Source: an uncultured virus (IMG/VR IMGVR_UViG_3300031857_000107)
Taxonomy: Duplodnaviria > Heunggongvirae > Uroviricota > Caudoviricetes
Virus record (IMG/VR): IMGVR_UViG_3300031857_000107
DNA length: 20,000 nt
Direction: 5' to 3' (one strand)
Shown: one piece after another, positions 8,661-11,271 of the stretch
Position numbering within the stretch: the stretch's first letter is position 1
How the letters are laid out: each line of letters starts with the position of its first letter
Translations under genes and position numbers: made by a program
The notes under the pieces: generated by a model
Databases searched by the model: none
Told to the model about the DNA's origin: nothing
Seen by the model: only the letters and a program-made list of their open reading frames with translations

Positions 8661-8678
8661 TGTATAATATTTAAGTGT

Positions 8679-8753
8679 GCTTCGCAAGCATAGATGCCGA
8701 TGCAGGGGTTTTGTAAACCTCAGAGCAGAGTTGAAGTCTCTGGCGAAGCTCCA
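8679..8753 (+). tRNA. trnT: tRNA-Thr(UGU), atypical D and T loops
   Basis: Acceptor GCTTCGC/GCGAAGC, anticodon arm GGGGT-TTTGTAA-ACCTC, T arm CAGAG-TTGAAGT-CTCTG, encoded CCA. Confidence 0.85.
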
Positions 8754-8762
8754 CTTTCCCCC

Positions 8763-8810: not shown

Positions 8811-8885
8811 GCGTTCGTAGCTCAACGGTAGAGCATCGGCCTTTTAAGCCGGTGGTTGTGGATTCGAATTCCACCGGACGCACCA
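8811..8885 (+). tRNA. trnK: tRNA-Lys(UUU)
   Basis: Canonical cloverleaf, anticodon loop CTTTTAA, TTCGAAT T loop, CCA. Confidence 0.95.
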
Positions 8886-8907
8886 TTTTTTTCAGTTCTT
8901 TTAAATT

Positions 8908-8980
8908 TTAAGCAGTGGAGTCACTCACAATATAATGTGTGTTATTTTTGTGAGATAGGAATTCGTTCCTCGCTGCTTAA
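8908..8980 (+). ncRNA. Candidate structured RNA (73-nt three-way junction)
   Basis: Closing stem TTAAGCAGTG/CGCTGCTTAA; hairpins CTCACAA..TTGTGAG and AGGAA-TTCG-TTCCT. Confidence 0.55.
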
Positions 8981-8986
8981 TCCTTT

Positions 8987-9060
8987 TAAGTAAGATAGTA
9001 GATTTAATATTTTGATGCGAGTATTAAATTCGAAAGTAATTGGTATTACAATCTTACTTA
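8987..9060 (+). ncRNA. Candidate structured RNA (74-nt three-way junction)
   Basis: Perfect closing stem TAAGTAAGAT/ATCTTACTTA; hairpins ATTTAATATT/AGTATTAAAT and GTAAT-TGGT-ATTAC. Confidence 0.55.
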
Positions 9061-9094
9061 GTTCTTTTAAAATTTAATATGTAGTAGTTTCTAT

Positions 9095-9167
9095 GGGCCG
9101 TTAGCATAATGGTTTGTGCAGCGAACTCATAATTCGTCGGTTGCTGGTTCAAGTCCAGCACGGCCCA
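9095..9167 (+). tRNA. tRNA with CAU anticodon, likely Ile2 (lysidine type), otherwise elongator Met; no encoded CCA
   Basis: Acceptor GGGCCGT/ACGGCCC (paired G1-C72, so not initiator; C4-G69 and C5-G68 as in TilS substrates), loop CTCATAA, T arm GCTGG-TTCAAGT-CCAGC. Confidence 0.88.
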
Positions 9168-9191
9168 CAGAGACTATTGCGTATTTATTAT

Positions 9192-9263
9192 AGTCCAATA
9201 ACTCAACGGTAGAGTAAACTCTTTATAAGGGTGAAGTTGCGGGTTCGAATCCCGCTTGGACTA
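9192..9263 (+). tRNA. trnI: tRNA-Ile(UAU); no encoded CCA
   Basis: Acceptor AGTCCAA/TTGGACT, D arm ACTC/GAGT, loop TTTATAA on a 4-bp stem ACTC/GGGT, T arm GCGGG-TTCGAAT-CCCGC. Confidence 0.82.
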
Positions 9264-9269
9264 TGATAC

Positions 9270-9344
9270 GGTCCATTCGTCTAGTGGTTAGGACAGTAGG
9301 TTTTCAACCTATTAACAAGAGTTCGATTCTCTTATGGACTACCA
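9270..9344 (+). tRNA. trnE: tRNA-Glu(UUC)
   Basis: GGTCCAT/ATGGACT acceptor, GTAGG-TTTTCAA-CCTAT anticodon arm, CCA. Confidence 0.93.
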
Positions 9345-9356
9345 AATTTTTCCCCC

Positions 9357-9385
9357 TTGACAGGGGCCATAATCTCTAGTAGATT
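9357..9385 (+). promoter_or_regulatory. Sigma70-like promoter for the tRNA-Leu/ncRNA operon
   Basis: TTGACA-N17-TAGATT, followed by CGTTCTTT. Confidence 0.75.
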
Positions 9386-9402
9386 GTGCGCGTTCTTTAA
9401 AT

Positions 9403-9478
9403 GGGTGCATAGACCAGCGGAAGAGTCAACAGACTTAAAATCTGTCAAGCGATGGTTCGAATCCATCTGCACCTACCA
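9403..9478 (+). tRNA. trnL: tRNA-Leu(UAA) with short variable loop
   Basis: GGGTGCA/TGCACCT acceptor, ACAGA-CTTAAAA-TCTGT anticodon arm, 5-nt variable region CAAGC, A73, CCA. Confidence 0.9.
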
Positions 9479-9497
9479 CTTTTGTTCTTTTACATTT

Positions 9498-9587
9498 TCT
9501 TTTTCAATATGAATCCCCCGGCTTCCAAGAGCGAACCCATGATAACAGACTTGGAAAATCTGTTACGGAATGGTTCTGAGAAAAAGA
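9498..9587 (+). ncRNA. Candidate structured RNA with kissing loops
   Basis: Closing TCTTTTTC/GAAAAAGA; TTCCAAG (9523-9529) is complementary to loop CTTGGAA (9550-9556) of the TAACAGA/TCTGTTA hairpin. Confidence 0.55.
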
Positions 9588-9588
9588 T

Positions 9589-9618
9589 TACAGCTTAGGA
9601 GTCATGACCTAAGCTGTA
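9589..9618. repeat. Perfect 11-bp inverted repeat with self-complementary loop
   Basis: TACAGCTTAGG-AGTCATGA-CCTAAGCTGTA. Confidence 0.8.
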
Positions 9619-9622
9619 TAAA

Positions 9623-9818
9623 TTTTGCAGCAATGAGGGCAGTCGTCTACATAAGACGTAGTTTGGGGTAGCCAGTGAAAAGCCTCTCGGAAAGGATCTG
9701 GTACAAATTGGGGCGGAGATCAAATTAAAAAAATAGTGCTTTTCGAACTATTTGAATTGATTGAAGCGGATGCCTAGTTGGGAACACATCAAACAACTGA
9801 TCGACCTGATCTGCAAAA
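9623..9818 (+). ncRNA. Candidate ~196-nt multi-stem RNA with pseudoknot
   Basis: Closing TTTTGCAG/CTGCAAAA, four internal stems, and TGAAAAGC/GCTTTTCG long-range complementarity. Confidence 0.6.
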
Positions 9819-9824
9819 AACATA

Positions 9825-9891
9825 CAGTGCGCCCAAGTGATCTTGTTTTGAGTCGCTTTACACTGAGACAACAATGGGCTGAATTTTACTG
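9825..9891 (+). ncRNA. Candidate interrupted-hairpin RNA
   Basis: Nested CAGT/ACTG, GCCCA/TGGGC and TTGTTTT(G)AGT/ACTGAGACAA stems. Confidence 0.4.
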
Positions 9892-9913
9892 AAATTTAGT
9901 TCTTTTATAATTT

Positions 9914-10039
9914 TATTCGATGTCAGCAAGCTCATGATGCTGAAGATAGAGTTGATAATTGCAAGTATCAATGTCGTCGTGGAGAGTGAGTGGGTTCATA
10001 AAAATCCTTCGTGATTTCCCCCTAAACCAACATCGAATA
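9914..10039 (+). ncRNA. Candidate 126-nt four-way-junction RNA
   Basis: Perfect closing TATTCGATGT/ACATCGAATA; arms CAGCA/TGCTG, TTGATA/TATCAA and GGAGA..GGGTT/AATCC..TTTCC. Confidence 0.6.
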
Positions 10040-10043
10040 TATT

Positions 10044-10105
10044 TTTCGCTAGAAGGACAAGGGGCTTCATGCCCCGTTCTGTAAAAAGACTTACTTCTAG
10101 TGGGA
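10044..10105 (+). ncRNA. Candidate 62-nt three-way-junction RNA
   Basis: 12-bp closing TTTCGCTAGAAG/CTTCTAGTGGGA (with G-U pairs), GGGGC-TTCAT-GCCCC hairpin and a short TCT/AGA hairpin. Confidence 0.5.
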
Positions 10106-10111
10106 TTTAAT

Positions 10112-10139
10112 TTGACAATACTATAATAGAGTATAAGAT
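10112..10139 (+). promoter_or_regulatory. Sigma70-like promoter for tRNA-Arg/Asn
   Basis: TTGACA-N16-TAAGAT. Confidence 0.6.
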
Positions 10140-10154
10140 AGTTGTAGATTTTAC

Positions 10155-10232
10155 GTTCCCGTAGCTCAGTTGGATTAGAGCAAAAGCCTTCTAAGCTTTC
10201 GGTCACAGGTTCGAATCCTGTCGGGAACGCCA
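10155..10232 (+). tRNA. trnR: tRNA-Arg(UCU)
   Basis: GTTCCCG/CGGGAAC acceptor, AAAGC-CTTCTAA-GCTTT anticodon arm, CCA. Confidence 0.95.
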
Positions 10233-10239
10233 ATTTAAC

Positions 10240-10314
10240 TCCAGAGTATTTCAACGGTAGAAAAGCGCACTGTTAATGCGCGGGTTGAAGGTTCGAATCC
10301 TTCCTCTGGAGCCA
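10240..10314 (+). tRNA. trnN: tRNA-Asn(GUU)
   Basis: TCCAGAG/CTCTGGA acceptor, GCGCA-CTGTTAA-TGCGC anticodon arm, G73, CCA. Confidence 0.95.
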
Positions 10315-10319
10315 CTTTT

Positions 10320-11213
10320 TCAATACATCTTAAATCCACTCAAGTCTACTTCATTAACTTTATATCCACTACTTAATGAAGATATTGTATTATTTACTTC
10401 GTTTATATAACTAGGAATATTTGTTGCCAAGCCAGCCATAGCTCCAAGTGTCATATACCAGCCGCCGATCAATACAACTTCATTATTAATAATAGTAGAA
10501 ACAATATTGCCGCTGTCGCCGCCAATTAATGCTTCGAAATATTGCGCTCTGTTAGGATCTTTTGAAATATTTATTAAGGTATTATTTGATCCGTAAGTAG
10601 TATTAAGTAAACCATTTTCTCCAATTAAAGCTTTTCTTTCTTGATCAGAATACAATATTGGAAAATTAATTTTATTTGCGTCAAAGTATTTAAGATAGTT
10701 AGCTGGCAATACATTATATATTTTTAGTGAAGCATCGACTTCTCTATCAAGTTCACCAATTAAAATATCAGTATTTGCTACTCGCTTTGTTTTCATGACA
10801 TTATAAACAAGTGATACATCTTTATTGTTAATAAAGAAAATCATGAATGGCGATTGCGAATAAGGCACATGATTCGCCAACAAAACGTGCTTCTTAGTTA
10901 TAAGTGTTCCGCCGCCAACTCCACCAAGAGGAACGACAGCAGCGGCATATCCAGTTAGATCAAGACTTTTTGCCCAACAATTAGTATTTCTGGGCCAATT
11001 ATAAGGATTAGCATAAGGTGTTAATATATTCTTTTCTTTCTTATCTTTAATTAAATTATCGAAGTTAGAAGAAATATGAGAAAATAGATCTAATTTATTT
11101 GTGGTTATAGATTTTGGTTTGGGCGCATCATTTAAAGCTTCGTTCTTAGCTTCTGCGATTATTTTTTGAATTAAAATTGTGTGATCTGCGAGTAGTTGTT
11201 CTAGGGTTGTCAT
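10320..11213 (-). CDS. Trypsin-like serine protease
   Basis: GGGTLITKKHVLLANH (His), TDILIG (Asp) and GGDSG (Ser). Start likely MTTLEQ at 11213, since the longer start overlaps the divergent promoter. Confidence 0.82.
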   Translation of the reverse strand: MTTLEQLLADHTILIQKIIAEAKNEALNDAPKPKSITTNKLDLFSHISSNFDNLIKDKKEKNILTPYANPYNWPRNTNCWAKSLDLTGYAAAVVPLGGVGGGTLITKKHVLLANHVPYSQSPFMIFFINNKDVSLVYNVMKTKRVANTDILIGELDREVDASLKIYNVLPANYLKYFDANKINFPILYSDQERKALIGENGLLNTTYGSNNTLINISKDPNRAQYFEALIGGDSGNIVSTIINNEVVLIGGWYMTLGAMAGLATNIPSYINEVNNTISSLSSGYKVNEVDLSGFKMY

Positions 11214-11242
11214 ACATATTTTCTTACACCGAAAAATGCCGC

Positions 11243-11271
11243 TTGACAAGGGAAAATTTTTCTGCCATCAT
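11243..11271 (+). promoter_or_regulatory. Sigma70-like promoter of the small-gene operon
   Basis: TTGACA-N17-CATCAT with TGn extension, 11 nt before the ATG. Confidence 0.6.

Follow-up and report, generated by a model that had tools for sequence, protein, structure and literature searches.

A conserved small RNA of phage tRNA clusters with a candidate loop–loop pairing and a palindromic hairpin loop

The role of the non-tRNA RNAs encoded in phage tRNA clusters has been open since the description of the T4 species I and II RNAs. These RNAs (rnaC and rnaD) derive from a tRNA precursor (PMC2330249), lie within the tRNA cluster without being tRNAs, have no known function and occur in some relatives only (PMC2330249, PMC9697503). 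PMC12286853 places ROOL and GOLLD, again with no known function, near phage tRNA islands, and describes symmetric kissing loops in OLE and GOLLD that were revealed by palindrome switching. The manA RNAs of aquatic phages likewise assemble via kissing loops (10.64898/2026.07.01.735769). Theta ribozymes, which are minimal HDV-like ribozymes, are defined by a cleavage site within 5 nt of a tRNA 3' end (PMC10879173). The prohead RNA (pRNA) of phi29 is described as unique to phi29-like motors, the large terminase being its equivalent in other phages (PMC5066667).

The RNA described here lies at 9498-9618 on the plus strand of a 20,000-nt stretch of DNA from an uncultured virus (IMG/VR IMGVR_UViG_3300031857_000107), the whole of which is called the window below. 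Like T4 species I and II, it is a gene for a structured RNA, other than a tRNA, that lies within a phage tRNA cluster, but the likeness is one of setting, and no phage-record blastn match covers it. Its hairpin P6 resembles the palindromic kissing loops of OLE and GOLLD, whereas ROOL, GOLLD and OLE are ~550-830 nt long against ~121 nt here, and the element has no Rfam match. It shares its small size (<200 nt) with manA and EGFOA but matches neither family; moreover, manA lies in 5' untranslated regions, whereas the RNA at 9498-9618 has no downstream reading frame, which makes cis control of translation unlikely. Like theta ribozymes, it is small, pseudoknotted and located 3' of a phage tRNA; theta ribozymes, however, form a nested double pseudoknot with a catalytic C in J4/2, whereas the covarying helices of this element make a three-way junction. 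No acceptor stem, T arm or model match on 9498-9618 supports a tRNA, a tmRNA or a Y RNA (YrlA), and the cores of the hammerhead, twister and pistol ribozymes, as generally known, are not matched. The element can be classed neither as a pRNA nor as a theta ribozyme or a tRNA, and it belongs to none of the Rfam families tested.

The window comes from a large phage genome, and its reading frames, many of them short, include ThyX, a RuvB-like ATPase and a SET protein. Seven tRNA genes were called at 8811-10314 by ARAGORN and Rfam, both of which find the tRNA-Leu(TAA) gene, with encoded CCA, at 9403-9478 (plus strand). The first-pass annotation had the RNA directly following this gene and a GTTCTTT motif. 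The order holds, with GTTCTTT at 9484, but 19 nt separate the CCA from the closing stem in the window, the spacing varies in relatives and the motif precedes 19 of 31 copies of the RNA. The motif belongs to an optional boxA-like sequence, GTTCTTTT (9484-9491, plus strand), that may act in antitermination. It matches GYTCTTTAANA, the boxA consensus (PMC5725501), in the core, and five of the six plus-strand GYTCTTTW sites in the 20-kb window fall within the 1.8-kb tRNA cluster. A putative sigma-70-type promoter (TTGACA-17-TAGATT, 9357-9385, plus strand), called from a consensus match only (10/12), lies 5' of the tRNA-Leu and RNA cassettes, and relatives carry a similar promoter-like site at the equivalent place.

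The element is also present in a relative, G001, a record of 174,551 bases rated complete, with one RNA copy at 36.8 kb. Its genes include rIIA/rIIB, UvsX, a clamp loader and a DNA polymerase (69 of 104 long frames scanned), and it encodes a large terminase (612 aa, phrog_2, E 1.9e-22, near 167-169 kb) that lies ~130 kb along the record from the RNA and is just 23-25% identical to its best cultured matches. As to the tRNA genes themselves, a tRNA-Thr(TGT)-like gene at 8678-8755, whose T loop is altered in the window copy, is missed there by ARAGORN and Rfam and called in relatives such as L004 and L005. Introns interrupt the tRNA-Leu genes of L115, L002, L003, L009, L027 and L028; that of L115 (1204-1415) is a group I intron by Rfam, and the others were recognised by ARAGORN or by likeness. 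Downstream of the cluster, on the minus strand, a 309-aa frame (10320-11249) shows trypsin-like motifs by eye (GTLI...ANHV, GGDSG) and has no Pfam hit.

Homologues were collected by several routes. Starting from the RuvB neighbour, 23 loci were found, of which three hold the element. A pattern for the small hairpin and junction gave true matches in 6/8 viral and 29/30 metagenome cases, and a looser pattern added one genome contig. A pattern for the next cassette, which does not draw on the element itself, matched 36 loci, of which 29 hold that cassette (7/36 module-B matches were dropped, the full module being absent) and 9/29 the element, including the divergent L070/L077, L088 and L100. Chance matches (L025, L026, L037, L105, L108, L132) were removed. 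In total, homologues lie on 40 contigs, duplicates included: 10 viral, 29 metagenome and one genome. Each of the ten viral contigs could also be found without recourse to a loop pattern. The genome contig, L115, is the sole genome-collection match, an 11-kb contig with the tRNA cluster of this phage in a Gammaproteobacteria assembly; it is probably a misbinned phage piece, which says nothing on the host. A model was built from 24 sequences, and 31 rows were aligned (33 sources given, 31 matched); alignment A3 leaves out exact duplicates and the cut copy L057.

Elsewhere the element was not found. The exact window pattern matched no viral contig, loop-free patterns gave no further lineage, and model searches over the full length of six records without the cassette, which are 10-58% complete, were negative. 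Blastn of 50,697 phage records returned three short chance matches, and of plasmids one, none covering the element in the phage set. Rfam at gathering score found tRNAs alone in the window, and tRNAs plus one group I intron in nine related loci; neither it nor ARAGORN made a call on 9498-9618, the weak snoU83 match over P5 reaching 20.9 bits against a cut-off of 50. The RNA did not appear in the published literature searched, and six of its motifs are absent from the part of the supplements of PMC10690425 that was searched, so that the RNA may still be among the 8495 IMG/VR candidates given there. Judged by its homologues, the 121-nt element is almost certainly a genuine and uncatalogued RNA.

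The strand is fixed by base-pair usage: the alignment has 58 G.U cells against 0 A.C, which places the RNA on the plus strand, although the minus strand of the window sequence folds better (z = -5.75, against -4.48 for 9498-9618). The ends of the ~121-nt unit are placed by U-rich spacers. The first-pass annotation had described a 90-nt unit, ending at 9587, in which an arm and a small hairpin lie inside a closing stem behind a single-stranded segment. All its strings are present (TCTTTTTC/GAAAAAGA, TAACAGA/TCTGTTA, GAACC/GGTTC), but comparison redraws the fold around them. P1, the closing stem (9498-9505/9580-9587), has a conserved core at 9501-9505/9580-9584, with C-G replaced by U-A in 7/31 rows and 100% of cells paired. 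Inside it, P2 (9511-9515/9572-9576, GAATC/GGTTC) shows two-sided change at 3/5 pairs, with 88% of cells paired, and P3 (CCG 9518-9520/CGG 9566-9568; G-C in 17 and A-U in 14 of 31) closes a three-way junction. Because pairing in P2 and P3 is conserved, GAATCCCCC is not single-stranded, and the segment GAATCCCCCG that had been taken as unpaired instead helps to close the junction. The long arm keeps TAACAGA/TCTGTTA as P5 (9543-9565; 98.6% of cells paired, two-sided change at 2/7 pairs, loop length variable) and loses GAACC/GGTTC, which pairs fully in 1/27 distinct cores and at four or more of its five positions in 2/27, against 24/27 for P2 as the alternative. P4 (9521-9532) is a 3-bp hairpin with loop UCCAAG, in which U-A becomes C-G in L088. 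P4 and P5 are joined by P3 without a linker, and the 10-nt strand between them (9533-9542, N-AACCCAUG-N, unpaired) is nearly invariant, its one change being AACACAUG in L070. Beyond 9587 a further hairpin, P6 (9589-9618), continues the RNA.

In the alignment of 31 rows, 97% of the cells are paired; 17/42 pairs change on both sides, against a mean of 7.3 in shuffled controls and 2-6 in slid registers. The alignment was fitted to the model and so leans towards it, and the two-sided count undercounts helix 5, where four rows are shifted by one column. Run unaided, RNAalifold recovers the three-way junction and the 3' hairpin, including 4/5 pairs of P2, and three homologues have the junction fold, or nearly so, as their minimum-energy structure. 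For the window sequence itself the two folds are near equal in energy (-17.8 for the first-pass fold, which is the computed minimum, and -18.1 for the revised one). Comparison of the homologous sequences thus shows the plus strand, helices P1-P6 and an optional block between U-rich spacers. Three other readings of the core were rejected: a pairing between the CAUG of the junction and the P6 loop, as the junction remains CAUG where that loop is AAUU or AGCU; a short reading frame from the junction ATG, which 1-nt indels in the P5 loop would break; and a circularly permuted tRNA, as the sequence makes no acceptor stem and neither GAATCCCCC nor ATGGTTC is conserved.

The claim at the centre of the first-pass annotation was a perfect 7-bp kiss between TTCCAAG (9523-9529) and CTTGGAA (9550-9556). 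Both strings lie at those positions, but T9523 is also used by the stem of the small hairpin, and, when the 90-mer was shuffled 5000 times with its dinucleotides preserved, 20.8% of the shuffles contained a 7-nt complement and 0.66% contained at least four, so that in the window alone it is weak evidence; the 90-mer alone folds at z = -1.57. Conservation supports a shorter contact. Five pairs, CCAAG 9525-9529 with CUUGG 9550-9554 (consensus CCAAR/YUUGG), can form in all 27 distinct cores, a sixth in 15/27 and all seven as Watson-Crick pairs in only 11/27. The left loop was fixed by the search pattern for most rows, whereas the right-hand YUUGG, found in 27/27 cores, lies outside every pattern used. 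Four of the five pairs are invariant and therefore give no covariation. The fifth (GC in 25, AU in one and GU in one of 27 cores) changes on both sides once, from G-C to A-U in L070/L077, and becomes G.U in L001; the double change, however, also turns the fourth P4 pair from U.G to U-A, so that a second explanation is available. In L100 that U.G pair is lost and the kiss retained. Taken together, the sequences make it likely that the 5-bp kiss forms and, if it does, we somewhat favour a contact within one molecule. To this extent the compact tertiary fold proposed in the first-pass annotation stands, as a conserved three-way junction with a 5-bp loop–loop pairing.

Self-association has better sequence support a little beyond the coordinates of that annotation, in the candidate dimer contact of P6. 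This 11-bp hairpin, with two-sided change at 6/11 stem pairs, is present in all rows long enough (29 whole and two cut, of 31) and absent wherever the element is absent. Its loop (9600-9607) overlaps the self-complementary GUCAUGAC (9601-9608). At the loop centre, 30 rows hold CATG (21), AATT (8) or AGCT (1), and none a single-change variant. The tree needs three changes of the loop, each double and each palindromic, where 6/54 double changes would be palindromic; the tree was built from 115 columns and cassettes are shuffled in these phages, so that there may have been two events and not three. Neighbouring bases are unable to pair inside a single loop, and palindrome switching therefore points to pairing between two copies. 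In PMC12286853 the same argument supported a symmetric intermolecular kiss in OLE L9.3, which cryo-EM confirmed. P6 shows the palindrome-preserving loop covariation of the ROOL/GOLLD/OLE type, a likeness of mechanism and not of membership. We consider it probable, from the pattern of loop changes, that the RNA dimerises through this palindrome. The junction strand 9533-9542 holds a palindrome of its own, CATG, in 31/31 rows; a second symmetric contact there is possible, but invariance cannot show it.

The element behaves as an optional cassette. It is missing from 20 of the 29 related loci, records that are incomplete. Where present, it is followed by at least four different cassettes and preceded, across a U-rich spacer, by a tRNA end or another cassette; where it is absent, tRNA-Leu or another cassette abuts the next cassette directly. 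In RNA libraries, contigs cover the element in three of four runs, run X8 having none; one contig of 136 nt spans 9484-9617 and another is identical over 9505-9714. The labelled runs that gave contigs from the region come from lakes, rivers and other waters. The same runs cover coding DNA, so that they attest presence in RNA libraries and not a discrete transcript, and DNA carry-over is possible.

The reading that we prefer, with a probability of about 0.48, is that of an accessory RNA, stable and released from the tRNA transcript by cleavage, that folds as an intramolecular pseudoknot, dimerises through P6 and serves as a decoy or scaffold. The ~121-nt gene, one of several interchangeable tRNA-cluster cassettes, would share a transcript with tRNA-Leu and the cassettes that follow, starting at the 9357 promoter and subject to boxA antitermination, and host nucleases would excise the RNA at the U-rich spacers. 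CCAAG would pair with CUUGG in the same molecule and stack on P4 as a pseudoknot, the invariant AACCCAUG strand may pack in the core, and two molecules could join via the palindromic P6 loop. During infection, the dimer might then be a trans-acting accessory, a decoy or scaffold for some host factor; such a role, as opposed to that of a cis regulator or packaging RNA, is a tentative suggestion, held at less than even odds. The P6 dimer and the intra- or intermolecular nature of the 5-bp kiss are separable predictions, both of which could be settled in vitro; the natural variants L070, L088 and L100 are ready-made compensatory mutants, and close relatives with and without the cassette offer a natural comparison.

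Whether the kiss is made within or between molecules also bears on an alternative that we regard as unlikely, namely higher-order assembly, in which the 121-nt RNA would carry three sticky loops. CCAAR and YUUGG would pair head to tail, hand in hand, into rings, and the symmetric P6 contact would join rings into a protein-free, RNA-only cage or filament. By a rough helix estimate using fibre parameters from general knowledge, the strand ends are ~17 A apart for a 3-bp P4 and 26-30 A for a 6-7-bp P5. An intramolecular kiss would thus be tight, with 9-13 A to absorb by bending or by fraying of the top P5 pair. That pair is weak (unpaired in 3/31 rows, G.U in 5/31) and could supply the slack. For an H-type pseudoknot, a loop of 1 nt, a second stem of 5 bp and an A-rich linker are nothing unusual, and at low concentration the intramolecular contact usually wins. 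In favour of assembly, the P5 loop varies in length while the five kiss pairs stay constant. Furthermore, covariation had first suggested a tertiary contact for the ROOL bridge B4, which turned out to be quaternary (PMC12286853), so that covariation cannot tell an intra- from an intermolecular kiss, and manA RNAs of <200 nt form pentamers and cages by kissing loops (10.64898/2026.07.01.735769); an intermolecular kiss together with P6 would give three sticky ends and hence rings or cages, as in manA. If so, RNA-only rings or cages would have in this RNA a natural building block of very small size, shorter than the cage-forming RNAs in the papers compared, and the RNA would belong to an exchangeable array together with at least five other uncatalogued cassettes, mixed like accessory genes.

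Returning to the preferred dimer, P6 could instead be a hairpin unrelated to a monomeric, pseudoknotted 90-nt RNA, acting as an intrinsic terminator or a barrier to 3' exonucleases, with a palindrome that is incidental or a DNA-level site. A consensus scan does list 9589-9618 as terminator-like, on both strands, and the loop GUCAUGUC of 8/30 rows, in which a U.U mismatch flanks CATG, self-pairs weakly (-2.6 against -5.8 to -10.5 kcal/mol). However, the U run begins several bases past the stem, the consensus scan finds no plus-strand promoter-like site between P6 and the next cassette, that cassette directly follows tRNA-Leu where the element is absent, and a terminator does not need palindrome-preserving loop changes. 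We consider this explanation quite unlikely.

More unlikely still is a self-cleaving ribozyme of a new class, or a processing element, that would free the tRNA 3' end or separate cassettes. The three-way junction, loop–loop contact and invariant junction strand make a catalytic-looking layout, and theta ribozymes beside phage tRNAs offer a precedent (PMC10879173). Against it, the distance from CCA to the conserved start ranges from 1 to 25 nt across copies: it is 18-25 nt in 17 of 31, 6 nt in two and 5 nt or less in only six, a distribution that also led us to reject a theta or other HDV-like ribozyme, and six copies have no CCA within 45 nt. Rfam matched no ribozyme family, and tRNA-Leu adjoins other cassettes where the element is missing.

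A decoy derived from tRNA-Leu, whose P5 arm would mimic the anticodon arm and divert a host anticodon nuclease, is very improbable. Positions 9555-9576 are 82% identical to 9437-9458 of tRNA-Leu and AACAGACTT is common to both, just upstream; but the T-arm-like ATGGTTC is confined to the window and L044, the loop of at least 8 nt has its 5' side committed to the kiss, and the T arm and CCA end are absent.

The phi29 prohead RNA, to which the first-pass annotation had likened the element, shares with it a three-way junction, two complementary loops and a length near 120 nt, but this analogy can be dismissed as far as function is concerned, since the element is dispensable (missing from 20/29 loci, hence not essential by comparison) and G001, at 174.5 kb, has a large terminase far from an RNA that is not near packaging genes and has a different junction. 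Rfam holds a pRNA model, and no pRNA was among its weak hits up to E = 10 at the element. For the phi29-type gp16 ATPase motor, PF05894 found nothing in G001, but it also scored in no control.

The neighbouring blocks of the cluster are of interest in their own right. A second uncatalogued cassette (9627-9814), with a GCAG...CTGC closing stem, conserved AATGAGG and ACCTGATCTGC and no Rfam match, occurs in short and long forms at 29 viral loci and is commoner than the 121-nt element. A third (9825-9879) has a nested pseudoknot layout in which CAGTG/CACTG encloses a hairpin and GCCCA/TGGGC crosses it; the inner hairpin covaries in relatives, and plain folding gives z = -0.15. We take its order of helices to resemble HDV-like ribozymes or preQ1-III, any catalysis being putative. 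The blocks 9915-10040 and 10050-10105 (hairpin GGGGC-TTCAT-GCCCC) are conserved, non-coding and present in some relatives only. An optional cassette of L001 (9380-9462) and L090, with a long closing stem and a T-loop hairpin, looks Y-RNA-like by eye and falls below Rfam thresholds; G001 lacks it, and no Ro60 gene (PF05731) was found in G001 by a scan in which 2/14 controls were positive. Finally, an optional pseudoknotted cassette without an Rfam match, at 9472-9556 of L001 and in L068, L079 and L088, has the form GCCAACAGGAC...CTGCAC with two crossing helices.
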